A stretch of 64,000 nucleotides of DNA from a virus: the IMG/VR virus record IMGVR_UViG_3300045988_166195, positions 57,023-121,022 of that record. One strand, written 5' to 3'. Below the pieces are notes generated by a model that searched no databases, was not told where the DNA came from, and was given only the letters and a program-made list of their open reading frames with translations. Below are positions 10,619 through 26,490 of this stretch, one piece after another. Every line of letters begins with the position of its first letter. The first letter of the stretch is position 1. The position numbers and the translations under genes were made by a program.

Positions 10619-13600
10619 ATGGCTTTCGGACGAAAGAAATCCGGTGGAGCAGCGCCTCGTGAACACGGTAGCCAAGCGTGGAACCAGTTGGGTAAGCAAG
10701 ACGAGCTTGACTCGCTGGCCTATCAGGATGTGCACGGCGACCAGCAACTAGAACGTAGCGACATCGAGGCGAAGATCTCTCCGGTGTCGCGTGAGGTCGC
10801 ATCGGCTGTTGCCGGTGTGCTTATCTTTATCCTCGTGTGGATGCTGTTCTCGTTCGGCACGATGGGTGTGGCCATGGGCCGTGACGCTCTGTGGCGTTCG
10901 TCTGTTCCGAGCTACGCGGTGCAGAACAAGGCTCTGACGAAGGAGCTGGGCAAGCCTGTGTGGAGCGAAGGGTGTTTCTCTCCAGCTCTCGAAACAGGTG
11001 AGATCGATACGTCCGATGAGACGTGCTATGAAGCTGCTGAGGATGTTCCTGAGCCACAGTGGCACGTGGATGCCGTTGCAGCAGAACAGGCTGAGCGCGA
11101 TGTAGAACTAGCGGATCGCCCAAGCGGTGCGATGGGATGGATGCTGTCATTCGATTGGCTGAAGTTCATTGTGTCGTCGATCGCTGGTCTTGTCGTGTGG
11201 GGCTTGCTGCGTATGCGACTGATGCGCAACTTGAAGGCTCAGAACTTGATGCGGGATACGACCGACATCAACCAATACAAAAACGACCAGCACGTGGCAC
11301 TTCCTGAAGAAGTGCGTGAGCGTTTCGATGTGGTGCCTGACGTGGGCGCGCACACAGGTGTAAGTGCGACGACGCTCATTTCCCACTCGATGGTCTCGAA
11401 CAAGGGCATCAAGAAGGTGGCATTTGCGCAGCGAGCAACTGAGGACATTCTCGACGAGGATGGCGATGTGGCTCTGTTCGAGGGAGAAGCTCTCACGGAC
11501 GATAACGGCGACGTTGTGACCAAGATGGTGCCGATGTTTGACGAAGAGTTTGGTACAGCTCTGTGGAACGCATCGGGGCTACCAGATAACAAGCAACTGC
11601 GTCGTCGTTTGGATCCTCGAAACGTGCCGTACAACCCAGGGAATGCCAACCGAGACAAGCTCAAGGGTTTCAACACCCTGGCTGATCTGGTGAACGGTGA
11701 GTGGGAACTTCCGATGTATGAGCCGCAGCGTCCTGCTGGCGTCTACTACGTGGATACGGCTCCTGCGAACACCATGATCCTAGCTATGACTCGTGCTGGT
11801 AAGGGTCAGACGTACATTGAGCCGATGCTCGATATTTGGATGCGTCAGAAGCGCCCGGATAACATGGTGATCAACGACCCCAAGGGCGAGCTCTTGGTGA
11901 AGAACTATGTTCGTGCCACCATGCGTGGTTTCCAGGTTGTGCAGTTCAACCTCATCAACGCCATGAAGACTGATATTTACAACCCGCTTGGAATGGCTGC
12001 TGAGGCTGCACGCGAAGGTGATCAAACCAAGTGTGCTCTGTATGTCGAGAACATCGCAGATGTCTTCTTCCCTGTGGATGGCGCGGAAGACCCTGTGTGG
12101 CCGAACGCTGCGAACAACGCGTTCAAGCGTGCGGCATACGGCCTCATCGATTACTACCTCGAAGAAGAACATCAGCTGCGTCAGTACGCGATGCGTCACG
12201 GTATGGATCAGAAGGTTCTGGAACAGAAACTCGATGCCATGTGGGGTAAGGTGACGCTCTACAACTGCTACCAGTTGTTCGTGCAGCTCACGAGTAAGAA
12301 GCGTAAGTCTCCGATGACTCAGGTGAACGAGCGCATTAAGAGTGGCTACTACGATCAGCAGTCGTCCGATCCTGATGAAGTCGACGCTCTGATCGAGCAC
12401 GACAAGATGCAGGCTGAGCGTATTGAGTTCTTGTGGGAAGGTAAGCCGGAATCTGACTTGCTCACCTTGTTCTTCAACGCCACTGAGGCGTTGCCTCAGT
12501 CGACGATGCGTACGTTGATCGCTAATGCGAACAACGCACTGCGTGCAATGGCTGGAGCTGAGAAGATGCTCGCATCTGTGTACGGTATTGCTATCACGGC
12601 AATGTCGTTCTTCACGGATCCGACGATCTCGACGTTGACCTCTGGTACTCCGTCACAGAACACGGATCTTGGCGGTCTGTCGTTCCCTCGTCGCTTCGGT
12701 GTGCGTTTCGCTCAGAACTTCACCAAGCGAGACGGTCTCATCGGTGCTCAGGCGAAGTGGGATGCGTTCGATGATCCCGAGTTGAAGCACAACCTGGGTA
12801 AGGATTTCGAGCACGAAGACACAGTGGTGCGAGAAGGATGGGCTCGTTATTACTTCGACGGTAAGTTCCCACATGACGTTGCCTACTTGCGACTGCGTTT
12901 GTTCAACCCCCAGACGGGTGTGTTGCTCAAAACGTTCTACTTCCAGTTCACGAAGGGTTACCAGCTCTCGTTGAATGGTCGTAAGTTCGTCAAGGATCCG
13001 ATCACGGGTAACAAAATCATCCGTAATGGCGTTCTCGTGGAGATGGTGAAGGGTAAGAACGGGGTTCTTGTTTCTGGTCACCTGAGTTATCCGGCAACAC
13101 GTCTGTTGGATAAGGCGGGGAGCCTCAAGACTGTACGAGAGGATGTCCCTGCGATTATCCTGTCGTCGGTTCGTTATTCGGAGCAGCCGAAGGCTGTGTT
13201 CCTGGTGACGCCACCTCACTTGATGAAGTACGCGAAGCTCGTACTGATTCTTGTGAAGCAGTTGGTGGATCTGAACTTCGATAAGTCGTACATGACGAAG
13301 GCGAACCAGAAGCCGCTCTACAAGACGCGCTTCATGCTCGACGAGCTCGGCAACTTGCAGTCCGAGGGTCACGGTATCTCGGGATTTGAGACCATGCTCT
13401 CCATTGGTCTGGGTCAGGAGCAGCAATTCACGCTGATTCTTCAGACGTTGCAGCAGGCTCGTGACGTTTACGGGGACAGCGTAGACAAGATCATTCAGGG
13501 AAACGTTGCCAATATCGTCTTCTTGAAGTCGACGGATGACACGATGATTGAGACGTTGGCCAAGATGTCCGGTACTCGCCACCGTGCGGTGCGAGACTCT

Positions 13601-14665
13601 AAGACGGTGACTCAGGATACTGAGCGTCTCATCGAAGGTCTGAACGTTGAGGGCAAAGTGTCGTACACGATCAGCGCGAAGGAAGAAAGTGTCATTGGGT
13701 ACAACGATCTGGCATTCTTGCCGGAACGTAACTCGATCATCTTTTCGGCAGGCATCTCGCCTATCTGGAACCGCAATGCGGAGATTCTTCCTATGTCGTG
13801 GCGCTTGTTCAGCAACACGATCAAGCATCCGGGCCGCGAGTACTCACTTCAGACGATTCCGACTCTCTCGTCGGCGCTTGATTTCGATGTGCGTCTTAAC
13901 CAGCCGAACTTCATGAAGATGCTGGATAAGCGCATCGAGCAAGCCGCGAATGCGGCTGAGGCGATGGAGTTGTACCAGGAGGCATACGATCTGGATGATT
14001 ATGGCATCTCGATCCTGGATCCCGATGTGTACTCGGCTGAGGTCATGGATCTCATTGCCTCGATCGAGGAAGAGCGCAGGGGCCACGACATGGAGAACGA
14101 AGAGTACGACATGGACAGTGACGAGGCTCTACGTGCTCAGTTGGGATCTGGCTACGATATGTTCAACGAGGCTGACGAGATTAACGAAGATGTCCGCGAG
14201 GATCTTGCTGCTCGTCAGGAGATGTTGGCCGATCGAGCGAAGATGCGCTACGCGGAAGGTCAGATCAGCCGTGAGCATCTGATGAGTGAGAGTGGACAGG
14301 TGTTGCACCATCTCGATGGTGACATCGTTGCTGCGTATCGTGAAGCGAAGCACGCAATGGTGGATGACGTTCGGTTCTTCCGAACAGACGAGAACGGTTC
14401 GCTGTGCTCGCTGGATGGAAAGGTCTACATCAGCCAGGGTGTGTCGAGCGATGAGCTGCGTACTCTCCAAACCGCATCGTCCGATGAGACGAGCGGTGTG
14501 TATGCGGATGATGAGTCGATCTCTGAGATCGCGGACCTGGGTTCGTGGCGAGTCCATGATGCGTTCTATAGGTTCTTGCACGGCCTGGAGTCGTGGGAGG
14601 ATCTCGGCGGAGGCACTTTCGATCGCGCTATTGCACGAGTGTTCGAACGTCGAGAGAACGAGTGA
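10619..14665 (+). CDS. Type IV secretion coupling protein-like ATPase (VirD4/TraG/TraD family) with ~700-aa C-terminal extension
   Basis: Two N-terminal TM helices. Walker A MTRAGKGQT. DPKGEL motif (MVINDPKGELL). Walker B-like RFMLDELGNL. Q-rich stretch typical of T4CPs. Acidic/aromatic C-terminal 300 aa with no known motif. Confidence 0.65.
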   Translation: MAFGRKKSGGAAPREHGSQAWNQLGKQDELDSLAYQDVHGDQQLERSDIEAKISPVSREVASAVAGVLIFILVWMLFSFGTMGVAMGRDALWRSSVPSYAVQNKALTKELGKPVWSEGCFSPALETGEIDTSDETCYEAAEDVPEPQWHVDAVAAEQAERDVELADRPSGAMGWMLSFDWLKFIVSSIAGLVVWGLLRMRLMRNLKAQNLMRDTTDINQYKNDQHVALPEEVRERFDVVPDVGAHTGVSATTLISHSMVSNKGIKKVAFAQRATEDILDEDGDVALFEGEALTDDNGDVVTKMVPMFDEEFGTALWNASGLPDNKQLRRRLDPRNVPYNPGNANRDKLKGFNTLADLVNGEWELPMYEPQRPAGVYYVDTAPANTMILAMTRAGKGQTYIEPMLDIWMRQKRPDNMVINDPKGELLVKNYVRATMRGFQVVQFNLINAMKTDIYNPLGMAAEAAREGDQTKCALYVENIADVFFPVDGAEDPVWPNAANNAFKRAAYGLIDYYLEEEHQLRQYAMRHGMDQKVLEQKLDAMWGKVTLYNCYQLFVQLTSKKRKSPMTQVNERIKSGYYDQQSSDPDEVDALIEHDKMQAERIEFLWEGKPESDLLTLFFNATEALPQSTMRTLIANANNALRAMAGAEKMLASVYGIAITAMSFFTDPTISTLTSGTPSQNTDLGGLSFPRRFGVRFAQNFTKRDGLIGAQAKWDAFDDPELKHNLGKDFEHEDTVVREGWARYYFDGKFPHDVAYLRLRLFNPQTGVLLKTFYFQFTKGYQLSLNGRKFVKDPITGNKIIRNGVLVEMVKGKNGVLVSGHLSYPATRLLDKAGSLKTVREDVPAIILSSVRYSEQPKAVFLVTPPHLMKYAKLVLILVKQLVDLNFDKSYMTKANQKPLYKTRFMLDELGNLQSEGHGISGFETMLSIGLGQEQQFTLILQTLQQARDVYGDSVDKIIQGNVANIVFLKSTDDTMIETLAKMSGTRHRAVRDSKTVTQDTERLIEGLNVEGKVSYTISAKEESVIGYNDLAFLPERNSIIFSAGISPIWNRNAEILPMSWRLFSNTIKHPGREYSLQTIPTLSSALDFDVRLNQPNFMKMLDKRIEQAANAAEAMELYQEAYDLDDYGISILDPDVYSAEVMDLIASIEEERRGHDMENEEYDMDSDEALRAQLGSGYDMFNEADEINEDVREDLAARQEMLADRAKMRYAEGQISREHLMSESGQVLHHLDGDIVAAYREAKHAMVDDVRFFRTDENGSLCSLDGKVYISQGVSSDELRTLQTASSDETSGVYADDESISEIADLGSWRVHDAFYRFLHGLESWEDLGGGTFDRAIARVFERRENE

Positions 14666-14680
14666 TTGACGTATTACCAT

Positions 14681-14718
14681 ACACAGAGGGGGTAACTAAT
14701 TAGTTACCCCCTCTGTGT
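14681..14718. terminator. Bidirectional terminator: 17-bp perfect IR acacagagggggtaact|agttaccccctctgtgt between convergent genes
   Basis: Read in sequence between the T4CP stop (14665) and the end of the minus-strand gene (14737). Confidence 0.6.
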
Positions 14719-14736
14719 ATTCAGCAGTGTGCAACA

Positions 14737-15378
14737 CTATTGCTGAAGCTTGATTCTCCCGGAGCAGTACGGGCAACCAGTCTTTTTGGTGGTGCGGCTA
14801 TACGGTGTTGCCTTCCACGTATGAGAGGGGTTTATGGGGCACTGCCATAGCACGGACACGTCCGATCCTGGTTTAAGAGTGGTAGCGAGAGATTGATCGA
14901 TGAGTTGTTCGGCCAAGTCTGGATGTGTAGTTGCCAAGTCGCTTTGACCAGAGACGGCACGGCGACCTGAGCATTGAGGGCAGCGCGTTCCTTGGCGTGC
15001 GACGTTGCTGAGCGGAGCAGTCCAGTGATCGTGCATAGGGTTACCGCACCAGAACTCAACTTTCTTGTTGGAAGAGCCGGTGAGCTTTGTTTGTAGGCTC
15101 GTATCGACCATGAGAGCAGCAGCTTCGGGATGAGTGGTGGCAACGTCGTTGACACCGGGGATCACAGTCTTGCCATTACATACGCTGCATCCGGTGGGGT
15201 TTTTCGCGTTCGTACGGTTCATAGGGCTGGCCCACCACACGTGACGAGAGTCAACGGGGCAGCGCCATTGGACCTTCTTGTCTGAACCGCGAGCGATAGA
15301 TCTTAGGGATTGGTCCACAAGCTGGTCAGCAAGGGCGGGGTTGAACTGCTCAAGGGTCTGAGATGGTTTTCTTGGCAT
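14737..15378 (-). CDS. Triple-repeat treble-clef zinc-ribbon protein (DUF4379-like 'probable zinc-ribbon' repeats)
   Basis: Three repeats of W-x-C-x(5-6)-H-x-W ... R-x(3)-G-(T)-GCP-x-C-x-G-(R/K). Standalone. Confidence 0.6.
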   Translation of the reverse strand: MPRKPSQTLEQFNPALADQLVDQSLRSIARGSDKKVQWRCPVDSRHVWWASPMNRTNAKNPTGCSVCNGKTVIPGVNDVATTHPEAAALMVDTSLQTKLTGSSNKKVEFWCGNPMHDHWTAPLSNVARQGTRCPQCSGRRAVSGQSDLATTHPDLAEQLIDQSLATTLKPGSDVSVLWQCPINPSHTWKATPYSRTTKKTGCPYCSGRIKLQQ

Positions 15379-15558
15379 GGCGGTTCTCCTGATTCTATTA
15401 GGGGTTGTTTGTATTATTCAGTGTATCATAAATAGTCGGTTATATGTATGCGGGTTCCCTTGTGTTTCCAGTCGAAATGCGGGTTTTTGTCGGGTAGAAT
15501 GGAGGGCGTAATACCCGATCGATCCAGTGGATCGAAACTCCAGGAAGGAGAATGCGTT

Positions 15559-18500
15559 ATGCAAACGCGCAATGCCGGACTCCGGCGTTACATGTACGAG
15601 CATATGATCGCTCGCACAATCAATCGAACCTCGGAGATCACGAAGACTCCGATTCTTGTATCTCAGGGTCGACGCCTGAGGGATCTCATGGAAGAGCGTC
15701 TCAATGAACAGGGTCGTTCTTTCAACGATGGTGATCTACCTGTTACCGATGCGCTGGATGCTATCCAGAGCATCATGGAAGAGCATGTTCCCGGATACAA
15801 GCCTTTGTTCCAGCCTGCCGATACATCGAGTAAGGGCTACAAGGTTCTATATGAAGAGTTCAGGAACATGGTCGGTCTGAATGGCTCTGCTGGCGCGGCT
15901 GGTCCGCGTCTGCCGATTTCTCCGTATGATCCCCGGTGGGGGAGCCGTCGCACTGTGAAGCAGGCTGGGACCTCTATCCTGTACGTGCTCGATGGCGACA
16001 TCGCCGCATACGCAGACGGTAAGCCAAGCAACATCGAGAAAGCGACGACCTCAGAACTTACTCTGTACCGCTTGACTGATGAAGGGAAGGCCAAAGAGGC
16101 AGGCCGCGCTCTCAGCCTTGATGATGTCTCGGGTCTCACCGAGCTCATGGGTCGCATGTCGACGGCTGAGTACAACGAGGTTCGTCAGTGGGTGCTGGAC
16201 GGTGCTCGCAACCCTGAAACGGGGCGCTACAACGCCCGTCAGTTCATGAGCACTGATGCATTGGCTCGTTCCCGAGCTGTGCTGGACATGCTCGCAGAAG
16301 AGGGCATTCCGTACACGATCGAGAAGGATCTTCGCCCTGGTCAGATCCGTGCGCGTTTGACGGGTACGAATATGACGGTGCGCCTGACTGACACCCGAGA
16401 CAAAGAGCAGTGGGTGGGTCGTGTCTACGACAACGGTGCAACTCTGTACTTCTCCACGACGGCTCGTCGAGACAACAAGCAGGTGGCCTACACGCCAACT
16501 GTTGACGAGGTGTGCGACCTCGTGCGTGTTGCGCTGGGTCGACCAGTGGAGCGCAAGGATGGTAAGGGCCTCGTGGGCCGAGTGGGCGAGCGTCAGACCA
16601 GCAAGGGTAAGACGGTTCAAGAGTCGTATCTCTCCACTGGAACACTGACGAGTGCGTACAAGGACATGCCCGGTATGAACGGTGAGCAGATCGTGATTCG
16701 TCGTCAGATGAAGGAGCGTTCTGCGTCTTCGCGGTTCTTTGCCGATACGCCCGAAGGTCGTGAACAGGCATCCGGTTTCATTACCGGTGCTGTGCACAGC
16801 GCTCGTCACAATGTGATTGAGCAGCTCGATGTCGATGGTCTGATCCAGCAGTTCCGCGATCACGAGGATGCTGCCCGTGAGGGTACGTACATCCCTATGC
16901 TGTCTGGTGATCCTGATCTTGCGGCGGTTGGCCGCGCGTACTGGGATGTGCTTCGTGGCGCTGAGACAACTCTGCTGAAGCCTGAGGCTACGCGAGCTGA
17001 GTACGCTGAGGCGACGGGTCTGCTTGACGACATGGATCAAGAGAGCGATCTGTCGGGCGTTCACGACATGCTGGCCGGTTCCGTGGCGTACACGGGTACC
17101 CCGGAAGAACGTGTTCGTGCGCATCTTCGGGATCTTCTCGATACCCAGATCGGTATCGATGAGCCTATCGACTCTGATGACTTCGTGTTCGATCCAGTGC
17201 GCGTTGCTCGTTACATGACGAGTGAACACGGCCAGTGGCGTAACAACGATGATCTCGTGGCTGCTATGCGCAGCGTTGGTATGCCTCAGGAGAAGATCGT
17301 CGGGGAGTCGTTCTATTCCAACACGTTCCGCGATCGACTGATCACCTTCGATGAGTCCACGGCTTTGCCGATGGAGACGGTCGAAGATGAGTTCACTCAG
17401 TCGATGCTTCAGGTTGTGTCTGACACGCTGGAGTCCTGCGCTGTGACGCCTGGTTCTATCCGCGTCGACGCCAACGGCGTTGTGGAGTGGACGGGCTCCA
17501 TCATGCGCTCGCAGACAGGTAAGGAAGAGCCCGTGAGCGGTACGATCGGACAGATCTTTGCTCGCGGTGAGAACGGTGAGATCATCACACGGTTCAATTC
17601 CGGTAACGATCTGATGATCGTGCCTGGTTTTGACGCACGTGTGGTGGCACAGAAGCCTGGAGAGAACAAGTCCCTCGAAGAGCGCACCCGGCTGATCGGT
17701 TACGAGCAGCAGATGAGTGACGCGATTCGATACCGAGTTCAGGCTGATGTGCTCTCAGGTCGTTCTCGTGTGGGTGAACCCGCCTCGTTGAACAGTGTGT
17801 ACCGTCGTCTGTCGGATACGCGCCATCGCGCGGATCACTACGAGCGCGCTCTCGAAGAGGGTATGGATCGGAAGATCCTTGATGCCATTCTTGCTACCGA
17901 AGCGCGTCGTGTGCGTTACCCGAACGCTTTGCGTGATGGGTCGACGATCGACGCTGACTTCCGTGCATCTCGTGCTCGGGAACAGGGTATTGGTGGCGAT
18001 CCGGCCAACGACACGACCATGGATCCGTGGGTGTTGACCGGCGGTCGCAACATGTCGTTGCTCAGCGAAGAAGCCGATGGCTACTTCGATCCGATCATGA
18101 CATCGGGCGGTGTGAACCAGGGCGTGACTCGTTATCTGGTGTCCGGTGCGCAGGTGAATCCTGATGGATCGATCGTACGTTCTGATAAGAACGACCGTGC
18201 ACCGCTGATGTTGACTGAGCAGGCTCAGCTCATGAGCTACGATCCGTTCGATCGTCAGCAGATGACGACTTCTAATCTCATGAACGCATCGTCTGTGACG
18301 AAGCCTGTGGGCACGGCGTTCATGACTGCTGGTGGTTGGACGATGGAGGACTCCATCGTTGTCTCGGCTGACTTTGCCAAGCAGTACCGCGTTCGCGGCA
18401 CTGACGGTCAGATGCGCGATCTCATCGTTGGTGACAAGATCTCCGATATGCACGGCAACAAGGGTGTTATCTCGCTCATTGTTGATCGCAATGCCGATCT

Positions 18501-21009
18501 GTCTCCTGATGAGATTGAAGAGTTGCATGGATCGACTGACATGATGACGCTTTTCCGGGAGAATCCGGGTTTGGATGTCGTCATGGCACCGTTCAGCGCT
18601 GTGTCTCGTTTCAACGGCGGCTCGGCACGTGAGGCGATGCGGCAAACGTCTGCGCTTCATCTGCCAAACGGCACAACCGTTGAGGCAGGTATTGGTCAGG
18701 TGTCGTTTATCGGCACGCATATGACCGTGGATGCGAAGACGGCTGCATACGATGAAGCTGCGATCCGAGCTGGACAAGGTCGTAAGGCGTCGTCTCAGCT
18801 TGCATGGGCCTTGCAGTCCCAGGGCTGCGATAAGGTGTTGGGGCAGATGTATGGTGGCAACCTGCAAGCTCTTGCGCAGCTGCGTGAAATGGCTCTGGTG
18901 TGCGGTTTGGACATCGAGCCTGATGGCACCTTGCGCGATGGTCATGATGATCTTGCTGTTGGTGGGCAGCGCCGTCTCATCGAGATGGGCGATGTGCCGC
19001 TGACTGAACGTGGATCGTTCGACGTGCGTCGCGTTCGTAACGATTTCGCGTCGCTGATTGGTGACGCTGGTGGTGACATGGAGATTCCGTTCCCGCTGAC
19101 GATGCCAACGGGCGCTCGTACGCCTCATGCAACAGACACCACCTGGCGTGTGCCGGTGCTGAGTTCGCATCTGCGATCGGGCCAGGATCTGGATGACGGT
19201 ACGTCGACGGTCCATGATTACACGTATCGTTACCTTGCGATCCGTGAATGGTCGCTGCGCTACAAGCATGCGGCTGATCGCGCTGCGTCTGGTGAGCTGA
19301 CGGGTAAGGAGCTTTCCGATGCTCGTCGAACGATGGCTGAGGCTATGCACCGTGCGCAGACGGCTTACGATGGCATTGCGCAAGACATCATGCGTCGCCG
19401 GTTTACCGGCAAGCGCAATGTCTTCAAGGAAGGTCTCATGGCTTCGCGTCTGCCGCACTCGGCTACCGCTGTGTGGACGGGTGATCCTCGCTTGGACATC
19501 GACCAGGTTGGTGTTGGCCCGGAGCTGGCGAAGAAACTACACTTGCGCGATGGTGACTACGCGCTTGTGTGGCGTGATCCTGTTCTGCGTGATGCGGGTG
19601 TCCGTTACATGCGTGTTGCGATCGATGACCGTCTCACGGGTGTGAGTGTGAATCCAAACATGGTCAAGTGCTTCGACGGCGACTTCGACGGTGACTCTGT
19701 GGCTGTTGTGAAGCTGGGTGATGGTCCGGCACATGAGCAAGCGCTGGAGCGTCTGACTGTCGAGGCTAACCTCATCGATCTCGGTCAGAGCATGGACGAC
19801 GAGGGTCGTTACCCTCTTGCGATGCACAACGCGCTCGATGTGAAGGTGTCGCAGCACTACGACTCTCGTCATGCGGATGCGATGGATGAGGTTCATCAGC
19901 GCGCCAACGATGCGTACTACGATCTGACTGAAGGGGATGCTACTCGTGAGCAGTTCCTGGAGGCGGGTCGTGATGTCGTTGATGCAGCGTCGTATATGTA
20001 CCGTGATGCGCTTCAGCATCAGTACGGTGAGGCTGTGTTGTCGTTTGGTTCCGTTCAGGAGCACATGAAGTCTGTGGCGGCTGCGTGTATTGAGACGGGA
20101 GCTAAAGGCTCGCCTAAGAAGATGCTGGATTACGCTCGGTACATCGGCTATGACCCTGAGAACCAGGTGGATCTGGTGACCACGTGTGTGACTCGTGGGG
20201 AACAGCAGGGCACCATGTTTGCGACGGCTGTGAAGTCGTTTGGTACCGGTGTTGCCGGTACGTTCTCGCAGCGTGGTGTGCGAGCTCTTCGTAACGATGA
20301 GCTCAAGGCTGTGTTGGAGCTGACCTACCCGGTGACGCAGAGTATTTTGCAGGCTAAGCACGACCCTGTGGATGCTCGTCATCGCTATGAGTTGCTGATG
20401 GGTCCGGCGCGAAGCTTGTGGCGTGGTCAGATGATTGCACAGGATGCCAACGGTGTGTGGAACACTGTGACGGATGACGATCATAAGCCGGTTCAGGCTA
20501 CCAAGGATCAGTGGGTCGCTGTGTTCTCGCAGTTCTATGGCGATGATGGTCTGGGTGTGGCTGTGAACAGTGACAACATCACGAAGGTTGCAAATGCGCT
20601 CAGCGATAGCAACGGGGTGATGGTGAATCTGGAGGACGAGAAGGTCATTGAACAGCTCGCTTCTCCGATGGATCGTCTGGCTTACGGCGGTGACTTCACC
20701 ACGATGCAAGCTCTGGCTGAGACTCGGGCAAACTTGTTCGAGGGTCGGTGGAACGTTACGTTTGCACCAGCTCGTGTGCGTGAGGTGCTGGAGGCTGATG
20801 TGGAGACGCAAGCTGAGGCACCGGTGATCGCCATGGAAGACACTGTGGCTCGCGTGGACCGTGATGAGAAGATCGGTCGACGTAAGTCGACATCGTGGGC
20901 TGTCCCAGTTCGCTCGAACACGGGTGCCAGCGCAGCTGAGCGTTACGGTTTGACGACACAAGACAACAGTGAGACAGACAAGTCTGTCGATGATGGTTTC
21001 GAGCTGTAA
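15559..21009 (+). CDS. Giant single-chain multisubunit-type RNA polymerase (fused beta-like + beta-prime-like, two double-psi beta-barrels)
   Basis: Beta hallmark VGDKISDMHGNKGVISLIV followed by NPGLDVVMAPFSAVSRFNGG (cf. E. coli beta GDKMAGRHGNKGVIS ... NPLGVPSRMNIGQ). Beta-prime hallmarks ALVWRDPVLRDAGVRYMRVA (cf. NRAPTLHRLGIQAF) and VKCFDGDFDGDSVAVV (NADFDGD catalytic loop). ATG 15559 with GGAAGGAG RBS; the ORF track's upstream start 15448 is less likely. Ends ...KSVDDGFEL. Confidence 0.75.
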   Translation: MQTRNAGLRRYMYEHMIARTINRTSEITKTPILVSQGRRLRDLMEERLNEQGRSFNDGDLPVTDALDAIQSIMEEHVPGYKPLFQPADTSSKGYKVLYEEFRNMVGLNGSAGAAGPRLPISPYDPRWGSRRTVKQAGTSILYVLDGDIAAYADGKPSNIEKATTSELTLYRLTDEGKAKEAGRALSLDDVSGLTELMGRMSTAEYNEVRQWVLDGARNPETGRYNARQFMSTDALARSRAVLDMLAEEGIPYTIEKDLRPGQIRARLTGTNMTVRLTDTRDKEQWVGRVYDNGATLYFSTTARRDNKQVAYTPTVDEVCDLVRVALGRPVERKDGKGLVGRVGERQTSKGKTVQESYLSTGTLTSAYKDMPGMNGEQIVIRRQMKERSASSRFFADTPEGREQASGFITGAVHSARHNVIEQLDVDGLIQQFRDHEDAAREGTYIPMLSGDPDLAAVGRAYWDVLRGAETTLLKPEATRAEYAEATGLLDDMDQESDLSGVHDMLAGSVAYTGTPEERVRAHLRDLLDTQIGIDEPIDSDDFVFDPVRVARYMTSEHGQWRNNDDLVAAMRSVGMPQEKIVGESFYSNTFRDRLITFDESTALPMETVEDEFTQSMLQVVSDTLESCAVTPGSIRVDANGVVEWTGSIMRSQTGKEEPVSGTIGQIFARGENGEIITRFNSGNDLMIVPGFDARVVAQKPGENKSLEERTRLIGYEQQMSDAIRYRVQADVLSGRSRVGEPASLNSVYRRLSDTRHRADHYERALEEGMDRKILDAILATEARRVRYPNALRDGSTIDADFRASRAREQGIGGDPANDTTMDPWVLTGGRNMSLLSEEADGYFDPIMTSGGVNQGVTRYLVSGAQVNPDGSIVRSDKNDRAPLMLTEQAQLMSYDPFDRQQMTTSNLMNASSVTKPVGTAFMTAGGWTMEDSIVVSADFAKQYRVRGTDGQMRDLIVGDKISDMHGNKGVISLIVDRNADLSPDEIEELHGSTDMMTLFRENPGLDVVMAPFSAVSRFNGGSAREAMRQTSALHLPNGTTVEAGIGQVSFIGTHMTVDAKTAAYDEAAIRAGQGRKASSQLAWALQSQGCDKVLGQMYGGNLQALAQLREMALVCGLDIEPDGTLRDGHDDLAVGGQRRLIEMGDVPLTERGSFDVRRVRNDFASLIGDAGGDMEIPFPLTMPTGARTPHATDTTWRVPVLSSHLRSGQDLDDGTSTVHDYTYRYLAIREWSLRYKHAADRAASGELTGKELSDARRTMAEAMHRAQTAYDGIAQDIMRRRFTGKRNVFKEGLMASRLPHSATAVWTGDPRLDIDQVGVGPELAKKLHLRDGDYALVWRDPVLRDAGVRYMRVAIDDRLTGVSVNPNMVKCFDGDFDGDSVAVVKLGDGPAHEQALERLTVEANLIDLGQSMDDEGRYPLAMHNALDVKVSQHYDSRHADAMDEVHQRANDAYYDLTEGDATREQFLEAGRDVVDAASYMYRDALQHQYGEAVLSFGSVQEHMKSVAAACIETGAKGSPKKMLDYARYIGYDPENQVDLVTTCVTRGEQQGTMFATAVKSFGTGVAGTFSQRGVRALRNDELKAVLELTYPVTQSILQAKHDPVDARHRYELLMGPARSLWRGQMIAQDANGVWNTVTDDDHKPVQATKDQWVAVFSQFYGDDGLGVAVNSDNITKVANALSDSNGVMVNLEDEKVIEQLASPMDRLAYGGDFTTMQALAETRANLFEGRWNVTFAPARVREVLEADVETQAEAPVIAMEDTVARVDRDEKIGRRKSTSWAVPVRSNTGASAAERYGLTTQDNSETDKSVDDGFEL

Positions 21010-21022: not shown

Positions 21023-21063
21023 GGGCGGGTTGTTTCGCGTGGTTGAAGCAACCCGCTTCCTCT
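21023..21063 (+). terminator. Imperfect GC hairpin after RNAP gene (gaggggcgggttg...caacccgcttcctc)
   Basis: Read in sequence. The trailing T-run is weak. Confidence 0.3.
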
Positions 21064-21094
21064 TCATGAGCCGGTGTATCTTGATATGGCAGCG

Positions 21095-21125
21095 ATAGTA
21101 CAATATACTGATATATGAGTCGAAA
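21095..21125 (+). promoter_or_regulatory. Degenerate copy of conserved upstream motif (GTACAATATACTGATATATGAGTCGAA)
   Basis: Aligns with GTGCGATATACTGGTATACGAGTCGAA upstream of paralog 3. Confidence 0.3.
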
Positions 21126-21153
21126 ACCCGTTCCAAGAAAGGAAATATTTATC

Positions 21154-22365
21154 ATGTCTGTGTCAGCTATGTCAGAGTGGATGGCGAAGTTCCCCCAGGA
21201 TTGGGTCGAGATTCGTTATGGTCTTGAGGCTCATGAGTGGGCTGGTTCGCTTTCTGATCGAGTGATGGCGATTATCAATAAGAATGACCCCGCACGAGAA
21301 GATCGGGTTAATGCATTGCTGCGTGACAATGCTGTGCTTCTTGAAAGAAGGTTTCAGGGTCACAGGCGTCCAGGACCTGACGAGGACTTTATTGATTATG
21401 CCGAGTTCCGTGATGCCATTTCTCATGTTGTAGAAAATGGTATTTCTATTAACGATGAAACCTATTCGCAAATCCATTATGTGGATAGTACATGTGTGCG
21501 TTCTCCGACAAAGGCGCTGCTGCGTCCGCATCATGAGGTATATCCCAATGCCAACGTACAGGCTTTTTATCGTCGGTCTTTGCGCGAGGGGAAGCCTTCA
21601 AAACCTTCGGATGGATATATCAAAAATGTGTATGGTCTGAGAGGCGATGAATGGACGGGCACATCAGTCGATGTGGGGGCGATCATCAATGATCGCTCAT
21701 CGAGGATAGCATCGATAAGGGATCAGCGTGTCAATGATTTCTTGCGTGATCAGGTGGCTGTTTTCGAGATGGGCATGGAGAAGCTTGAGGCCAAGAACGC
21801 AACATATAACGATATGGGAGTAGGTGCTCGTGCTTATGGTTATGATCTGCGTGATGCGATTGAGGAAGCCGTAGAGAATGGTATTTTGATTAATGCTGAA
21901 ACGATGAACGCTATCAAGAGGGTAGAGCATGATTACGTGACTCCATATGTCGGGGAATCGTTGGCGAACCAATATGACAAGTTGTATGAGCTTAATGAAG
22001 CACGGAAACATCATCATGAGATTGCGCCATCGTTTGCATCATCACATGAAAAGAAGTCTGAGCCAGCGATTCATTCGGTCATTACCGGTGGAAGTGGTCA
22101 TGGTAAAGAACAGGTTCAGCTTGCTAACGTTTTGAGCGGACGGATGCCCTCGATGGGTCGCGATACAGACGGCCAGTCTTTGGCACCGTCTACCCCGTCT
22201 CAGGGTTCTCGTCAGGGGTCTATTGGGGCAGCGCTTCCCGGTAGTTCCATTACTGTTGGTCGTCGGACGCCTCGTGTGTCGCCCACTGCTGGTACGGCTC
22301 GTCGTATGGGTATTTCTGAGTCTCAGGTACAGACCCCAAGCGTCGATGACGGTTTCGAGCTGTGA
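21154..22365 (+). CDS. Tandem-repeat protein, paralog 1 of 3; C-terminus ...RRMGISESQVQTPSVDDGFEL
   Basis: Internal repeats RYGL(E/D)xHEWxG(S/T)LSDRVxAIINKxDPxxExRVNALLRD and a second helical repeat (GILINxE(A/T)MxAIKRVE). Pro/Ser-rich linker, conserved C-terminal 40 aa. RBS aaagga-N8-ATG at 21154. Confidence 0.65.
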   Translation: MSVSAMSEWMAKFPQDWVEIRYGLEAHEWAGSLSDRVMAIINKNDPAREDRVNALLRDNAVLLERRFQGHRRPGPDEDFIDYAEFRDAISHVVENGISINDETYSQIHYVDSTCVRSPTKALLRPHHEVYPNANVQAFYRRSLREGKPSKPSDGYIKNVYGLRGDEWTGTSVDVGAIINDRSSRIASIRDQRVNDFLRDQVAVFEMGMEKLEAKNATYNDMGVGARAYGYDLRDAIEEAVENGILINAETMNAIKRVEHDYVTPYVGESLANQYDKLYELNEARKHHHEIAPSFASSHEKKSEPAIHSVITGGSGHGKEQVQLANVLSGRMPSMGRDTDGQSLAPSTPSQGSRQGSIGAALPGSSITVGRRTPRVSPTAGTARRMGISESQVQTPSVDDGFEL

Positions 22366-22392
22366 TCGCCATGTGATCATGGGTTGACACCA

Positions 22393-22440
22393 TGAAGAAG
22401 CAGGTCTCGCCTTCGGGTGGGGCCTGCTTCTTTGTCTGTA
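22393..22440 (+). terminator. Rho-independent terminator (gaagcaggtctcgccttcgggtggggcctgcttc + tttgtctgtat)
   Basis: Hairpin plus T-run read directly between paralog 1 and paralog 2. Confidence 0.5.
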
Positions 22441-22476
22441 TACGTTGCAATGGTGCGATATACTGGTATACGAGCC
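22441..22476 (+). promoter_or_regulatory. Conserved upstream motif ACGTTGCAATGGTGCGATATACTGGTATACGAGCC (element-specific promoter candidate)
   Basis: Near-identical copy at 23391-23427 (ATCGTTGCAATAGTGCGATATACTGGTATACGAGTCG). Related pieces occur at 21095, 8063, 54980 and 63091. Confidence 0.5.
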
Positions 22477-22509
22477 AAACACGTGGCGATGATGGAAAGG
22501 AAGGGTGTT

Positions 22510-23322
22510 ATGACGCTTTATTACGATCAGGAAATCAAGGAGTATACCGATGCCGGGATCAGGCGATACAAAGGTCTTGATCCACATGAAGAGCTGGATG
22601 CACCAACCGAGCGGTATGGTCTTGATCCACATGAGTGGACAGGAACATTGGCCGATAAGGTGACAGCGATTATCGGTAAAAATACGCCCGAGAAGGAAAC
22701 GCATGTGAATGCGTTGTTGCGCGATGCGGCAAAATCATTTATGAAGAATGCCAAATATGCGGAAATGAATGCCCATAATGATGAAACTACCTTTAAGAAG
22801 GTAATGTCTGTCAACGGTGATGATTTGCGTGCTGCTATGTCCGAAGCGTCCTTGGGCGGCATTCTTATTAACGATGAAGCGATGGATGCTATCAAACGTG
22901 TGGAAAAGCGTTATCTTTCATATTGGAGTTTTGATTTCGGTTTTGATTCTCTGACGCATGCATACGATGAGCTGTATAAACTTAATGATGCGCGAGCTCA
23001 TTTCCGTGAGAGTGCGCAAGTGATGCGAGGTGCTGCGAATACCCCAGCGATTTCAAATCCAGAGTTTGATCGTTTCGCCCCGCCTCAGGGTTCACGTGTG
23101 ACGACGGTTCCGCCGCCTGTGCGGTCTGCGCCCTCTATCCCGTCTGCTCTTTCTATGTCCGCTGTGTCCACTCAGCGAACTGGTTCTATCCAGGCTGTGC
23201 TTCCAGGCAGTGGTATCAAGGTGAGTCGAGCGGCACCTCATGTTCCGCAGACTGCCCGTCGTATGGGTGTTGTTGAGTCACAGGTGCAGACTCCGAATGT
23301 TGATGACGGGTTCGAGTTGTGA
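22510..23322 (+). CDS. Tandem-repeat protein, paralog 2 of 3; C-terminus ...RRMGVVESQVQTPNVDDGFEL
   Basis: Same repeat units as paralog 1 (YGLDPHEWTGTLADKVTAIIGKNTPEKETHVNALLRDAAK; ILINDEAMDAIKRVEKRY; FDRFAPPQGSRVTTVPPPVR). Start ATG 22510 after ggaaaggaagggtgtt. Confidence 0.65.
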   Translation: MTLYYDQEIKEYTDAGIRRYKGLDPHEELDAPTERYGLDPHEWTGTLADKVTAIIGKNTPEKETHVNALLRDAAKSFMKNAKYAEMNAHNDETTFKKVMSVNGDDLRAAMSEASLGGILINDEAMDAIKRVEKRYLSYWSFDFGFDSLTHAYDELYKLNDARAHFRESAQVMRGAANTPAISNPEFDRFAPPQGSRVTTVPPPVRSAPSIPSALSMSAVSTQRTGSIQAVLPGSGIKVSRAAPHVPQTARRMGVVESQVQTPNVDDGFEL

Positions 23323-23349
23323 CGCTGACGTGATTATGTGATGGGGTAG

Positions 23350-23392
23350 GTCTTGCTTGAAAGCGGGGCCTACTTCATCGTTTTGCCATGTT
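23350..23392 (+). terminator. Weak hairpin + T-rich tract after paralog 2
   Basis: ggtaggtcttgcttgaaagcggggcctacttcatcgttttgcc read directly. Confidence 0.25.
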
Positions 23393-23427
23393 ATCGTTGC
23401 AATAGTGCGATATACTGGTATACGAGT
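23391..23427 (+). promoter_or_regulatory. Second copy of conserved upstream motif (TTGCAATAGTGCGATATACTGGTATACGAG)
   Basis: 31/33 identical to the copy at 22441-22476. Confidence 0.5.
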
Positions 23428-23457
23428 CGAATGCAACTAAATGAAAGGAAGATGGTC

Positions 23458-24786
23458 ATGTCGACGATATGGTATGAAGGCCCCACCGATGGCAACATCG
23501 AGGGGCGTTACGGTCTCGATTCGCACGAGTGGGTGGGGTCGCTGTCCGATAGGGTGGCGACGATCATTGACAAGGATGATCCTTGGAAGGAAACTCATGT
23601 GAATGCGCTCTTGCGTGATGGCGTGGAGTTCTATGCGCAGAAGTCGCAGGATCATCCAGAATTGAGTGATGATGATCAGATGCGCGATGCTATCTCTTAT
23701 GTGGCGCATAGCGGTGTTCTCATCGATGATGAGACTCTGTTGGCTCTTACGGATGCGGATGACAAGTACGTCATCCCGTTTGGTGCAGAGTCTTTGATGT
23801 ACGAATACAACAAGGTGCATCAGCCTGATTACGGACGGATTTATCAGCGTCAGCGTGATGCTGCGCAGTTGCCGTACGCGGAGGCAACAGACGAAGAGAT
23901 CAAGGAGCACTATGGCCTTGATCCACATGAGTGGAAAGGGAGTCTTGCCGATAAGGTGATGGCGATTGTTAACAAGAATACGCTTGACAAGGAAACGCAT
24001 GTGAATGCGCTTCTACGTGATGGTGCACGGCTGTTCGCTCAGAATATGGAAGCTCAACCGGTATCGGGTGTGAGTGAAGATGAGATGAGGTACGCGGTGG
24101 AGTCTGGTGGCGATGAACTACGCGCTGCCATCTCTGACGCATCGTGGGCTGGTGTTCTCATCAACGATGAAGCGATGGAAGCCATCAAGCATGTGGAGAA
24201 GGAGTACATCACTGAGTTCGGTGGAGACTCTCTGACGCATGCGTATGATCAGATGCGTAAGCTGAACGATGCACGCGCTCATTATCGTGAGTCTGCGAAG
24301 GAGATGCGTGGCTCTGCGCCTGCTGCGCCTGCTGCGCCTGTTACCCAGGCACCTTCGAGCTTTGATCGTTTCGCCCCGCCTCAGGGTGCTCGTGTGACGA
24401 CTGTTCCGTCGCCTGTGCGCACTGTTGGGTCTGCTCGGTCTACTCAGGCAGCTCAGTCTGCACTGTCTGTGCCTCCTATTCCGCAACCTCCGAAGACGCC
24501 GGGATCCCAGGTTCGCACAGGTGGTCCTGTGCGGGTGGGTAATGTCGCCAAGGACTGGCTGGCTGCGAATGGTCGTGACGAGAAGGGTCGGCCTCTTGCG
24601 TCTACATCTACGCCGTCTACGCCTCAGGTTCCGGCTCAGCGATCGGGTTCGATCCAGGCTTCGCTTCCTGGTAGCGGTGTCACCGTGGGTCGATCGACGC
24701 CGCGTGTGCCACCCACTGCCCATCGTATGGGTATCCCTGAGCCCCAGGCGCAAACCCCAAGCGTTGATGACGGCTTCGAGCTGTGA
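23458..24786 (+). CDS. Tandem-repeat protein, paralog 3 of 3 (two copies of each repeat unit); C-terminus ...HRMGIPEPQAQTPSVDDGFEL
   Basis: RYGLDSHEWVGSLSDRVATIIDKDDPWKETHVNALLRDG and HYGLDPHEWKGSLADKVMAIVNKNTLDKETHVNALLRDG. Pro/Ala/Ser-rich linker. ATG 23458 has the best RBS spacing. Confidence 0.65.
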   Translation: MSTIWYEGPTDGNIEGRYGLDSHEWVGSLSDRVATIIDKDDPWKETHVNALLRDGVEFYAQKSQDHPELSDDDQMRDAISYVAHSGVLIDDETLLALTDADDKYVIPFGAESLMYEYNKVHQPDYGRIYQRQRDAAQLPYAEATDEEIKEHYGLDPHEWKGSLADKVMAIVNKNTLDKETHVNALLRDGARLFAQNMEAQPVSGVSEDEMRYAVESGGDELRAAISDASWAGVLINDEAMEAIKHVEKEYITEFGGDSLTHAYDQMRKLNDARAHYRESAKEMRGSAPAAPAAPVTQAPSSFDRFAPPQGARVTTVPSPVRTVGSARSTQAAQSALSVPPIPQPPKTPGSQVRTGGPVRVGNVAKDWLAANGRDEKGRPLASTSTPSTPQVPAQRSGSIQASLPGSGVTVGRSTPRVPPTAHRMGIPEPQAQTPSVDDGFEL

Positions 24787-24828: not shown

Positions 24829-26490
24829 ATGGCTCGTCCACCTCGTCAACTTCCAGCGCCTCGTTACGGGGGTGAAGTTGGTCCGCAGAAGGTTCAAGAC
24901 GAAACTGCGACAATGGCTGTGACCAAGGAGCAGATTTTCGACAAGAAGCCTGAACCTGTTCACGCGGTAGAGCCAAAGCCTGCGCTCGATTGGGCGCAGC
25001 AGCTGAGGCTCGATATGCGCTATCACGCTGATGGGTATCTTCACGCTCTCAGCCAGATAAATCTGAAGACCATGAAGCGAAAGGCTGACATCGCTTCTCG
25101 CATGAACGATCTTCAGGGTAAGCACAAGGCTTATGCGTCGATGATGGTGCTCAGCGCATTGGTACCGTTGAAAGACGGCGTATCGATGTCGGCTGTGGTT
25201 GAATCTGTTGGCATGGGTGTCACTATGTGGATGTTGTCGCCCAACTTCCGCCAACAGGTGAAGTCATTCGCTCGTGATGCGCGTATGGCTGTCGAAGACA
25301 TGGCTGAGGCGCGTCGACGCAGTCAGTCGAAACAGTTGCATGATAAGGCCGATCAACATCGAGAGAAGCATGGTGGTGAATTGCCGCCCTCTCTGAAGCG
25401 TCGTCTGGAGCGTATCGAAGCGAAGGAGCGCAATGGTCGCATCCCGTTCAATGAAGCGAGTGCGGCTTTGACGCATCTTGGTCTGAGCGAAGCGATGTTC
25501 AACCAGATGCGGCAACCGGGTGTGGATCCTGTTGAGGTTCAGGAAGGCTATGCGCACCTGATGGAGCGCTTCTGGGATGATGTCCACAAGGACGGCTTGG
25601 ATCCCGAAAAGGTGAACACCGTCAGTCGTATGCTCATGGGCCAACGGATGCGTTATGAGCCCCACTGGGCGAATGCGTTCGTTGAAACCGCTCATGGCGA
25701 GGTCGATATGGACATGGTGGAGACGGTGGACGCTCAGACGGGTGAACCCCATCGAACGTGGACGGGTATCTGGTCCACGCGCATGGGTGAGCCTATCGTG
25801 GGAGGTTCTTTCACTGTCCGTCCTCCGTACAACGAGATGCAGCATGAGTTGTCTCTGAGTACGTGCATGGCTCGTGAGATGGAGCGTGCAGCGCTGAATG
25901 GTAACATTGCGGATCTGAATGAGTCGCTGCTTGCCTACGGTTCTGCGTGGTCTGTTCGAGACAAGAACCTGGACGTGCACAGCGTTCCTGGTGCGATGGG
26001 TGAGAAGATTCGTCGAGCTCGTCGTGGTCTCGATGCCATGGAATTCGATGGTTTTGACCGCGATCAGCAGCGAGACATCTATGCGACATCGTTCGTTCAC
26101 GCCATGGACATGGTGGCGAAGGCTCACCCGGACATCGAGCGTCACTGGGCGCAGCAGTACGGTTCTCAATGGCGATCGGAGATGCGAGACTTCGCAGCGA
26201 CGCCAGAGGAAACATACAACCGGTGGCAACGGGGGGAGTTTTACTCTGATGCACGTGAATCTCCAGGGCATGACAATGCCCATGTGGATCCGCACACGGA
26301 ACGAATGAGGGAAGATTCCAAGCGTCGACGCAGCGCGTACAACCGTGCGCGTGACAACCAGGAGTACAACGCTCATGAGACATCGGCGTTCAAGGCTGAA
26401 GACTTTGAACTCAATGATGTCGACGACGAGTTTGACATGGGTGGGTACGATCGACCTAATGACAACGATGGTTTCGAACCATCTCTATGA
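24829..26490 (+). CDS. Hypothetical 553-aa protein; C-terminus ...DMGGYDRPNDNDGFEPSL (variant of shared tail)
   Basis: RBS gaaaggaggacaagATG. No recognised domain. Charged, helical composition. Confidence 0.6.
   Translation: MARPPRQLPAPRYGGEVGPQKVQDETATMAVTKEQIFDKKPEPVHAVEPKPALDWAQQLRLDMRYHADGYLHALSQINLKTMKRKADIASRMNDLQGKHKAYASMMVLSALVPLKDGVSMSAVVESVGMGVTMWMLSPNFRQQVKSFARDARMAVEDMAEARRRSQSKQLHDKADQHREKHGGELPPSLKRRLERIEAKERNGRIPFNEASAALTHLGLSEAMFNQMRQPGVDPVEVQEGYAHLMERFWDDVHKDGLDPEKVNTVSRMLMGQRMRYEPHWANAFVETAHGEVDMDMVETVDAQTGEPHRTWTGIWSTRMGEPIVGGSFTVRPPYNEMQHELSLSTCMAREMERAALNGNIADLNESLLAYGSAWSVRDKNLDVHSVPGAMGEKIRRARRGLDAMEFDGFDRDQQRDIYATSFVHAMDMVAKAHPDIERHWAQQYGSQWRSEMRDFAATPEETYNRWQRGEFYSDARESPGHDNAHVDPHTERMREDSKRRRSAYNRARDNQEYNAHETSAFKAEDFELNDVDDEFDMGGYDRPNDNDGFEPSL

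Follow-up and report, generated by a model that had tools for sequence, protein, structure and literature searches.

Why would a mobile element that encodes a relaxase and a VirD4-type coupling protein also carry a gene for an RNA polymerase (RNAP)? This question was raised by a 64,000-nucleotide stretch of DNA (hereafter the window), which covers positions 57,023–121,022 of the IMG/VR virus record IMGVR_UViG_3300045988_166195 and in which a preliminary description, made from the letters alone, had noticed a giant open reading frame (ORF) with beta-like and beta-prime-like (beta') RNAP motifs. The gene, at 15559–21009 on the + strand, encodes one chain of 1,816 aa with a beta-like and a beta'-like half, as supported by the reading frame, a ribosome-binding site and Pfam matches. 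Judged from its sequence, the product belongs to the NCgl1702-like family and is a single-chain nucleotide polymerase with two barrels and intact catalytic residues. The best explanation of the observations as a whole would be a donor-made polymerase that acts on the element DNA around transfer and is probably delivered, and we give this explanation a probability of about 0.45.

Catalytic residues and predicted fold of the polymerase

The four motif strings quoted in the preliminary description were all located in the ORF, on its + strand. The string with the GDK and GNKG motifs of beta, GDKISDMHGNKGVIS, was found at aa 958–972 (nt 18430–18474); the NPxGVPSRMN-like segment NPGLDVVMAPFSAVSRFNGG, the counterpart of the beta NPLGVPSRMN segment, at aa 1002–1021 (nt 18562–18621), with N1002, R1017, N1019 and G1021 invariant in 35 sequences; the NRxPTLHR-like string VWRDPVLRDAGVRYMRV at aa 1337–1353 (nt 19567–19617); and FDGDFDGD at aa 1372–1379 (nt 19672–19695). 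When compared with the E. coli beta sequence, DVVMAPFSAVSRFNGG was taken to be the homologue of beta DIVLNPLGVPSRMNIG, and the counterpart of "NP" is presumably the AP at 1010–1011 and not the NP at 1002. The curated Pfam cut-offs were exceeded for both barrels, by RNA_pol_Rpb2_6 with 29.6 bits against 23.4 (aa 950–977) and by RNA_pol_Rpb1_2 with 29.4 bits against 25.3 (aa 1328–1383). Furthermore, the alignment of the 35 homologues (31–80% identity) contained D931 (of MEDS), D959/K960, G966-N-K-G969, R1339/P1341 and D1375-F-D-G-D1379 as invariant residues. Eight residues common to all two-barrel polymerases have been listed by Ruprich-Robert and Thuriaux (PMC2919709). In beta', these are the three Asp of DxDGD and, in the RxP motif, Arg and Pro; in beta, they are the Asp of ED and two Lys that lie eight residues apart. 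All eight of them (D1375/D1377/D1379, R1339/P1341, D931 and K960/K968) were invariant in 35/35 sequences of the family alignment. The beta' RxP motif has the form NRxP in cellular enzymes. Because both Pfam barrel cut-offs were exceeded and the eight residues are invariant in the 35 homologues, the motifs are not chance matches.

The profile searches aligned the GNKG and DFDGD segments to the beta and beta' catalytic loops, as the preliminary description had anticipated. A single-sequence search of the PDB placed aa 1316–1387 onto the DFDGD loop of gp96 of Thermus phage P23-45 (E 3.5e-7), a virion RNAP and the best single-sequence PDB match of the polymerase, and aa 1277–1327 onto the switch region of Rpb1. 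The family profile matched Rpb1, beta' and archaeal A' down to E 1e-10, in an alignment that extended from ~130 residues before the barrel up to the GAKGS motif preceding the bridge helix. The polymerase scored far below the cut-offs of the NCBIfam rpoB and rpoC equivalogs (15–28 bits vs 800–1,040), and a search of PHROGs returned at most a marginal beta-subunit match.

The AlphaFold model of aa 640–1816 (pLDDT 85.9, pTM 0.82) was searched with Foldseek, and the top 50 matches were bacterial beta' chains throughout, with E values down to 2e-12. The structural scores of other two-barrel enzymes were below those of bacterial beta', slightly to clearly lower for phiKZ (15.3), AR9 (14.6) and P23-45 gp96 (11.9), followed by QDE-1 (11.3), crAss gp66 (10.9) and PolD DP2 (7.6). 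The predicted structure holds a beta-like and a beta'-like double-psi barrel in one polypeptide, around one active site, and the concern that the motifs might occur by chance within an unrelated fold found no support, as profiles and fold search both gave RNAP barrels. The beta-like barrel comprises aa 910–975 (18286–18483, +) with MEDS (D931) and GDK...HGNKG (K960, K968), as delimited by the model strands and the invariant Asp and Lys residues. Its ED pair (930–931) is separated from GDK (958–960) by 28 residues with one short helix between, and because of this short gap the barrel is concluded to be without the flap (SBHM) insertion. The flap insertion is where sigma and TFIIB act on cellular enzymes. 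The beta'-like barrel spans aa 1301–1384 (19459–19710, +) and contains WRDP (R1339, P1341) and DFDGD (1375–1379), on the evidence of hidden Markov model alignments to Rpb1, beta' and P23-45 gp96, of the invariant residues and of the model strands. The predicted active site is formed between the two barrels, the beta-like one giving the two Lys and the Asp of ED, and the beta'-like one giving the magnesium triad of DFDGD. Further downstream, a TGAKGS motif is followed by a 53-residue helix (20095–20352, +; model residues 907–959), which is a bridge-helix candidate; K877/G878 of the motif (model numbering) were invariant in the family alignment, and in the profile alignment the motif was matched weakly to GSKGS/GARGS of Rpb1 and beta'. 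The N-terminal third (aa 1–639; 15559–17475, +) is family specific; these ~640 residues gave no match to a known fold, and a beta lobe or protrusion was not detected in them. At its other end, the chain closes with a disordered linker of ~50 aa (20854–21006, +; pLDDT <35, model residues 1127–1177) that ends in VDDGFEL. The protein would almost certainly be an active two-barrel polymerase of its family, and it is likely that it makes RNA on a DNA template.

The ORF enclosing the gene spans 15448–21009 (+) and has 1,853 aa when counted from its first ATG. The true start is likely to be the ATG at 15559, because it is preceded at 8–9 nt by AGGAAGGAG, a ribosome-binding site, and because gene callers placed the start of P0001, a metagenomic homologue with 97% identity, at the equivalent residue. 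The longer start at 15448 was dropped on these grounds, and the ORF of 1,816 aa was retained as a real gene.

NCgl1702 of Corynebacterium glutamicum (BAB99168.1; in cluster P0111) was found to be a full-length homologue with 39% identity over 97% coverage (E 0). The group around it was noted computationally by Iyer, Koonin and Aravind in 2003, as cited in PMC2919709 and PMC7824862, and was re-examined in PMC2919709, whereas a biochemical or functional study of the NCgl1702-like family was not found in our literature search. The polymerase family itself is not new, having been known computationally since 2003, and the ORF is therefore a new member of a family that is experimentally untouched. 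The papers on the crAss and P23-45 enzymes mention plasmid single-subunit RNAPs in generic terms alone, and apparent mentions of YonO in papers on Clostridium plasmids proved to be the author name Yonogi. A word-indexed search returned 120 full-length relatives, nearly all of them unnamed or "hypothetical," and an exhaustive HMMER search gave 559 clusters at 50% identity, 379 of them at E≤1e-30; nearly all of the 150 clusters listed have sizes of 1.5–2.9 thousand residues. The family genera range from Streptomyces to Staphylococcus. Homologues were assigned to Parvibacter, to a Clostridia metagenome-assembled genome (MAG) and to a Muribaculaceae MAG (L057, L062 and L070), which suggests either a spread beyond Actinobacteria and Bacilli or binning errors. 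A megablast search with the polymerase gene found no match among the PLSDB plasmids.

The window polymerase shares with NCgl1702 the full-length homology, the single-chain beta::beta' order, the flap-less beta barrel, the association with a mobile element and an acidic-aromatic tail, and differs from it in that NCgl1702 has 2,169 aa and is chromosomal. The NCgl1702-like group is described as single chains in beta-then-beta' order with the SBHM flap absent from the beta barrel (PMC7824862), and the window polymerase has all these features. With the cellular multisubunit RNAPs, it has in common the two-barrel active site with the same catalytic residues and, in beta' order, the switch and lid region, the DFDGD loop, the GAKGS motif and the long helix. 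In contrast to them it is one flap-less chain without a detected beta lobe or protrusion, its module has no alpha or omega genes, and the identity in structural alignments is ~10–20%. The non-virion RNAPs of the jumbo phages phiKZ and AR9 are phage encoded and split into four or five polypeptides, whereas the window enzyme is fused and lies in a conjugation operon. YonO of SPbeta, a mobile-element enzyme that has been shown to be a DNA-dependent RNAP (PMC5467207), and the QDE-1-type enzymes are likewise single-chain, two-barrel and flap-less, but have ~100 kDa against 200 kDa for the window enzyme. The signature of QDE-1 is DYDGD, and the QDE-1/YonO group is without the Glu of the ED pair (PMC2919709); the window polymerase keeps the ED pair, has DFDGD rather than DYDGD, and lies outside this clade. 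The RNAP of the yeast killer plasmid, pGKL2 Orf6, is an Rpb2::Rpb1 fusion which, set side by side by its description, is also plasmid encoded and in beta-then-beta' order, but it keeps the flap (SBHM) insertion (PMC7824862) and belongs to a eukaryotic cytoplasmic plasmid with no link to conjugation.

Conserved transfer module and shared C-terminal tail

The preliminary description had noted a relaxase and a coupling protein in the same element as the polymerase, and this setting was borne out by a MobL relaxase at 1053–3392 (+; Pfam MobL, E 1e-62), which ends in ...DSMELG, and by a giant VirD4-type coupling protein of 1,351 aa with N-terminal membrane helices at 10610–14665 (+; Pfam T4SS-DNA_transf and TraG-D_C, NCBIfam conju_CD1115). 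The polymerase gene is followed by three paralogous cassette genes, d1–d3 (21115–24786, +; 36% identity, E 2e-70), by the conserved partner d4 of 553 aa (24829–26490, +), by the small protein d5 of 110 aa (26503–26835, +), which ends in ...GGYEFVG, and by an HU-family DNA-binding protein (26986–27351, +; Pfam Bac_DNA_binding, E 9e-13; in 69/82 loci), which closes the module. The conservation of this arrangement was monitored by tblastn with the window proteins in 82 loci, 79 of them from one genome per species and three from plasmid records. The order ClpB-like ATPase, 760-aa membrane-anchored protein, coupling protein, RNAP and d4 was kept in 72/82 loci, across Actinobacteria, with the HU-family protein also at the module end in 63 of these 72. 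The coupling protein was upstream of the RNAP, and d4 after it, each in 79/82 loci, and in Streptomyces the RNAP stop and the d4 start abut. Annotated plasmids of Streptomyces, Gordonia and Rhodococcus have MobL and then the same gene series, and on a Staphylococcus plasmid of 65 kb the ClpB-like ATPase, a coupling protein of 1,289 residues and a polymerase of 1,807 residues follow one another in the same order, with stronger Pfam scores for the polymerase (60.6 and 41.9 bits). The module occurs on integrated elements as well, because several of the loci sit in closed chromosomes. It was also found on the Gordonia plasmid pGKT2, the transfer of which to Rhodococcus and Nocardia is attributed to Jung et al (2011) in PMC5640721. 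The polymerase is thus very probably a core part of a conjugation module, and its fixed synteny with transfer genes appears to be new, being absent from the literature searched.

Four consecutive genes of the window, those of the polymerase and d1–d3, end exactly in VDDGFEL, and the cassette tails read ...QTP(S/N)VDDGFEL. In the tails of 255 family members, Asp at positions −8 to −5 was found at 19–29% against 8% and Leu at −1 at 30% against 7%; position −4 was biased to Gly or acidic residues and −3 to Met, Phe, Leu, Tyr or Pro, and basic residues were depleted. A loose tail pattern was present in 41% of the tails and 3.8% of the internal 9-mers, an enrichment of ~11-fold. NCgl1702 ends in ...DGGFEL and the Staphylococcus homologue in DKGFELEM. 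The window d4 carries three tandem tail motifs (DFEL...DDGFDMG...NDGFEPSL), its orthologues have the same type of tail (SEDYQPA in Streptomyces, DVDFELG in Microbacterium), and the positional equivalents of d5 in other loci end in ...PDLEL, ...NGYEF and ...NGYEL. A disordered acidic-hydrophobic tail is common to the RNAP, d1–d5 and, loosely, the relaxase, though the motif is loose and many family members lack it; it was not seen on the coupling protein, the ATPase or the membrane protein. The cassette genes d1–d3 are lineage-specific, and of the 82 loci only the two from Actinomyces genomes had them. The sharing of the tail by the polymerase and its downstream neighbours also appears to be new, as it was absent from the literature searched; for NCgl1702, that literature describes the conserved catalytic motifs and not the coupling-protein synteny, the d4 and HU partners or the tail.

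The number of cassettes varies, with two in one metagenomic copy (L083) and three in the window. Each of d1–d3 comes with a separate hairpin and with a 45-nt element conserved upstream; a conserved element, GCAATRGTGCGATATACTGGTATACGAG, is located ~30 nt before the ribosome-binding site of each gene. The variable cassette genes share with the RNAP the tail region alone; one constant tail on varied cassette proteins is therefore the pattern expected of cargo with a constant signal. No Pfam, NCBIfam, PHROG or PDB relatives were found for d1–d5, the 760-aa protein or a 1,113-aa membrane protein from the left of the window, and a d4 profile built from 23 sequences found no relatives either.

Neighbouring genes and the carrying element

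The cassette array (21040–24786, +) lies between the polymerase and d4, and its genes are internally duplicated. The relaxase is flanked by two proteins that end like the C-terminal tail of SSB, in ...DLDDPEF (3–923, +) and in ...IDEPEF (190 aa; 3520–4092, +). The same 190-aa gene was seen in L122; the protein has no matching Pfam family, and its positional equivalents in the Gordonia and Rhodococcus plasmids end in ...DAVPNF and ...DAVPSF. The ClpB-like double AAA+ ATPase (4238–8011, +; Pfam AAA_2, ClpB_D2-small and LAGLIDADG_3) was present in 76/82 loci. When compared with an uninterrupted Staphylococcus homologue, it has insertions at aa ~63–373 and ~621–989, both of which start right behind the Walker-A GxGK; LAGLIDADG/homing-endonuclease matches fall at aa 835–920, and a 48-nt repeat (5234–5281 and 7136–7183) lies near the end of each insertion. 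The insertions are probably two inteins, one per P-loop. The next gene encodes the 760-aa protein with a C-terminal membrane anchor at aa 702–736 (8162–10444, +), which was matched by tblastn in 74/82 loci; the antisense ORF at 8012–10447 (−), matched in 2/82 loci, was rejected as spurious. A treble-clef zinc-finger repeat protein (DUF4379; 14737–15378, −) is inserted between the coupling protein and polymerase genes in the window; its length is 213 aa in the window and 594 aa in another copy of the element with 97% identity, and it was present in only 6/82 loci.

Among genome records, the nearest was the MAG of an uncultured Actinomyces with two copies of the whole module (L004 and L009), whose polymerases are 97% and 87% identical to that of the window. 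The tails in these copies differ slightly (DDGFEL, ADGGFEL and DEASFEL), and the copies could be two co-resident elements or a binning mixture. The element recurs as 121–131 kb contigs in four metagenome samples (ENA/JGI loci L083, L084, L137 and L138), and the gene is also carried by 35 IMG/VR "viral" contigs (L087–L121), 25 of them with at least 87% identity to the window gene and mostly of 65–126 kb. The recurrent 121–131 kb contigs and the IMG/VR contigs of 105–126 kb therefore suggest a replicon of ~120–130 kb. The region inspected comprised ~84 kb, that is, the window with 10 kb on its left and 10 kb on its right. It was found to hold the relaxase, the coupling protein, polytopic and single-pass membrane proteins, a membrane-anchored lysozyme, helicases, RecJ and a D5-type helicase (52429–54162). 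No capsid, portal, terminase or tail Pfam family was found in the ~84 kb, and because of this lack of phage structural genes the element is probably a plasmid that has been classed as a virus. An exact look-up of the window relaxase returned no record, and the Rfam and tRNA scans of the window were empty.

In the 10 kb on the left of the window (L122, 142–9731), genes were seen for the 1,113-aa polytopic membrane protein, for several single-pass membrane proteins and for a Phage_lysozyme2 protein with a membrane anchor. A lysozyme gene and several hypothetical genes also precede the relaxase gene of a Streptomyces plasmid. The Streptomyces plasmid NZ_CP109461 (L085, 8402–9427) encodes an RNA polymerase alpha paralogue ~30 kb from the module. 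Iteron-like direct repeats with units of ~34–42 nt occupy 63664–63981, at the right window end, and inverted repeats (TTGTAGCAGATGTAGCAGAT) lie at 54739–55126, within a gap of 1 kb that precedes the D5-type helicase gene; either set of repeats is a candidate origin of replication or transfer. There are also two perfect palindromes, one at 14679–14720 with 21-nt arms and no loop, between the convergent genes of the coupling protein and the DUF4379 protein, and the other at 29072–29111 with 19-nt arms and a 2-nt loop, at the start of the region of a PemK/MazF-type toxin gene (28659–29123, −). A further gene (56178–56966, −) encodes an Rce1-like CAAX intramembrane protease. This protease family cleaves C-terminal tails in eukaryotes, and a link of the gene to the tails of the element is pure speculation.

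Proposed role of the polymerase around transfer

That the element brings its own transcription machinery, as the preliminary description had proposed, can reasonably be inferred from the sequence, and the module suggests how such machinery might be used. The polymerase would be made in the donor alongside the transfer proteins, and the disordered acidic-hydrophobic tail that it has in common with its partner, the small protein and the cassette proteins would act as a docking or translocation signal for the coupling machinery. It would then enter the recipient with the single-stranded DNA, via the coupling protein, and make the first RNA on the incoming strand, as early transcripts, as a primer for the complementary strand or as both, such that the host polymerase would not be needed. 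In this role it would be the plasmid counterpart of the phage virion RNAPs. The idea of delivery draws on transferred plasmid primases and on virion polymerases as precedents (PMC5512222; PMC10770324). The primases RP4 TraC1 and ColIb/R64 Sog, also element-encoded nucleotide polymerases, are donor made and moved with the DNA, as is the virion RNAP of phage N4 (PMC5512222), but the primases have an unrelated Toprim fold, and their translocation has been shown by experiment. P23-45 gp96, a tape-measure fusion, and gp66 of the crAss-like phage phi14:2 also have both barrels in a single polypeptide, and they are virion proteins that transcribe the earliest phage genes (for gp96, the pre-early genes; PMC10770324), which is parallel to the role proposed here; they are packaged in the capsid, whereas delivery of the window enzyme is what we infer. 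Delivery to the recipient, taken by itself, is somewhat less probable than the explanation as a whole. The more specific proposal, by which the polymerase, the 550-residue partner, the small protein and the cassette proteins would be secretion cargo marked by a D-D-G-F/Y-x-L tail, the ClpB-like two-ring ATPase would unfold or feed them and the RNAP would be injected with the DNA, appears rather unlikely.

Several observations weigh against a delivered polymerase. A folded enzyme of 200 kDa would need unfolding or an unusually wide channel. VirB4 ATPase was not recognised in the ~84 kb with Pfam, NCBIfam or PDB, which leaves the secretion apparatus poorly defined. The tail follows a loose pattern and is missing or degenerate in part of the family, with 59% of the family tails outside the pattern. 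The relaxase is the one certain substrate of type IV secretion, and its tail is related to the motif in the window (DSMELG) and in pGKT2 but not in the Streptomyces plasmid. The co-variation of the aromatic residue between RNAP and d4 tails was weak (Y/Y 26, F/F 3, Y/F 8 and many mixed), and because of this, conservation of the tail is claimed here and not co-evolution. The 9-mers shared among intergenic regions came only from the ribosome-binding site and the cassette element, with no motif of a dedicated promoter, and a scan for sigma-70-type promoters showed no enrichment, with 7 found against 10.7 expected.

The polymerase may instead stay in the carrier cell and transcribe some of the element genes, such as those for transfer or those of the cassettes, without the host sigma factors, as YonO does on late SPbeta genes. 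The tails would then assemble it with d4, the small protein and HU, or dock them on a common hub, and may be likened to the acidic C-termini by which T7 gp4 and gp2.5 are docked on T7 DNA polymerase. The catalytic evidence is the same as for delivery, the tight and possibly translationally coupled link to d4 and HU would offer potential specificity or architectural factors, and the conserved element before each of d1–d3 could be a dedicated promoter; furthermore, the missing flap insertion fits sigma-independent initiation (PMC7824862) and YonO is a precedent (PMC5467207). However, the conserved element stands at the three cassettes alone, with no other recurrent intergenic motif, and a resident enzyme would leave unexplained both the position of its gene right behind the coupling protein in a transfer operon and the same tail on unrelated, variable cassette proteins. 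We regard such a role as the main alternative, though as a less probable one. A role as conjugative primase, which would lay an RNA primer on the transferred or the donor-retained strand for the host DNA polymerase and replace the Toprim or archaeo-eukaryotic primases, has recurrent parallels, since transfer-linked primases of conjugative elements are moved with the DNA (PMC5512222), priming of the single-strand origins of rolling-circle plasmids and ICEBs1 by host RNAP is described in PMC4595007, and RNAP priming was raised for jumbo phages by Iyer et al (PMC7824862). Within the module, neither a Toprim nor a primase-polymerase domain was found, but 1,816 residues with a clamp-/switch-like region, a bridge-helix candidate and an extra domain of 640 residues exceed what a primase needs, and the D5-type helicase of the element may bring its own priming function. 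Priming alone is thus improbable as the role, and priming and early transcription can coexist.

The IMG/VR matches had raised the possibility of a phage or phage-plasmid, in which the polymerase and the tailed proteins would be packaged and ejected as in the crAss-like phages and P23-45. The contigs classed there as viral and the virion RNAP as best single-sequence PDB match speak for it, as does the position of NCgl1702, which lies in the CGP3 prophage region of C. glutamicum. The polymerase however found no tblastn match in 50,697 GenBank phage records, the same module is on plasmids of which one (pGKT2) is conjugative, and the ~84 kb have the relaxase, the coupling protein, the membrane proteins and the lysozyme in place of phage structural families. 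Such a set, with its membrane-anchored lysozyme, is what Gram-positive conjugation systems typically have. The phage hypothesis was set aside because no structural genes were seen in the ~84 kb inspected, and a virion polymerase is highly improbable. Template and sugar specificity are not readable from sequence, and the Asn of NADFDGD, which in cellular enzymes is in contact with the ribose of the incoming nucleotide, is replaced by Asp in FDGDFDGD; the protein could be an inactive relic with chance motifs, or it could resemble archaeal PolD, a two-barrel DNA polymerase, or QDE-1, an RNA-dependent one. Two observations speak against a relic, the invariance of the catalytic residues across 35 sequences and the intact state of the family in 379 clusters; the ED pair is kept, whereas the QDE-1/YonO group has lost its Glu (PMC2919709), which leaves an enzyme other than an RNAP scarcely credible.

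Conjugative DNA reaches a new host as a naked single strand and is generally thought to depend on the host polymerase for the expression of its first genes and the priming of its second strand. A two-barrel RNAP tied to a coupling protein in widespread Gram-positive elements suggests an escape from this dependence, which would help to explain transfer between genera. For two decades the family has been a footnote of computational work, and the fixed synteny and the shared tail now give it a concrete and testable role, with pGKT2 of Gordonia and NCgl1702 of C. glutamicum as possible entry points in cultured hosts. A flap-less minimal beta–beta' fusion with a domain of 640 residues is also relevant to promoter recognition without sigma. 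We know of no translocation signal for Gram-positive conjugation systems, and if the tails do address the cargo, theirs would be the first such signal for proteins to be defined. If the element does inject its own RNAP, the first transcription or priming in the recipient would be independent of the host, and the enzyme would be the plasmid equivalent of the virion polymerases.

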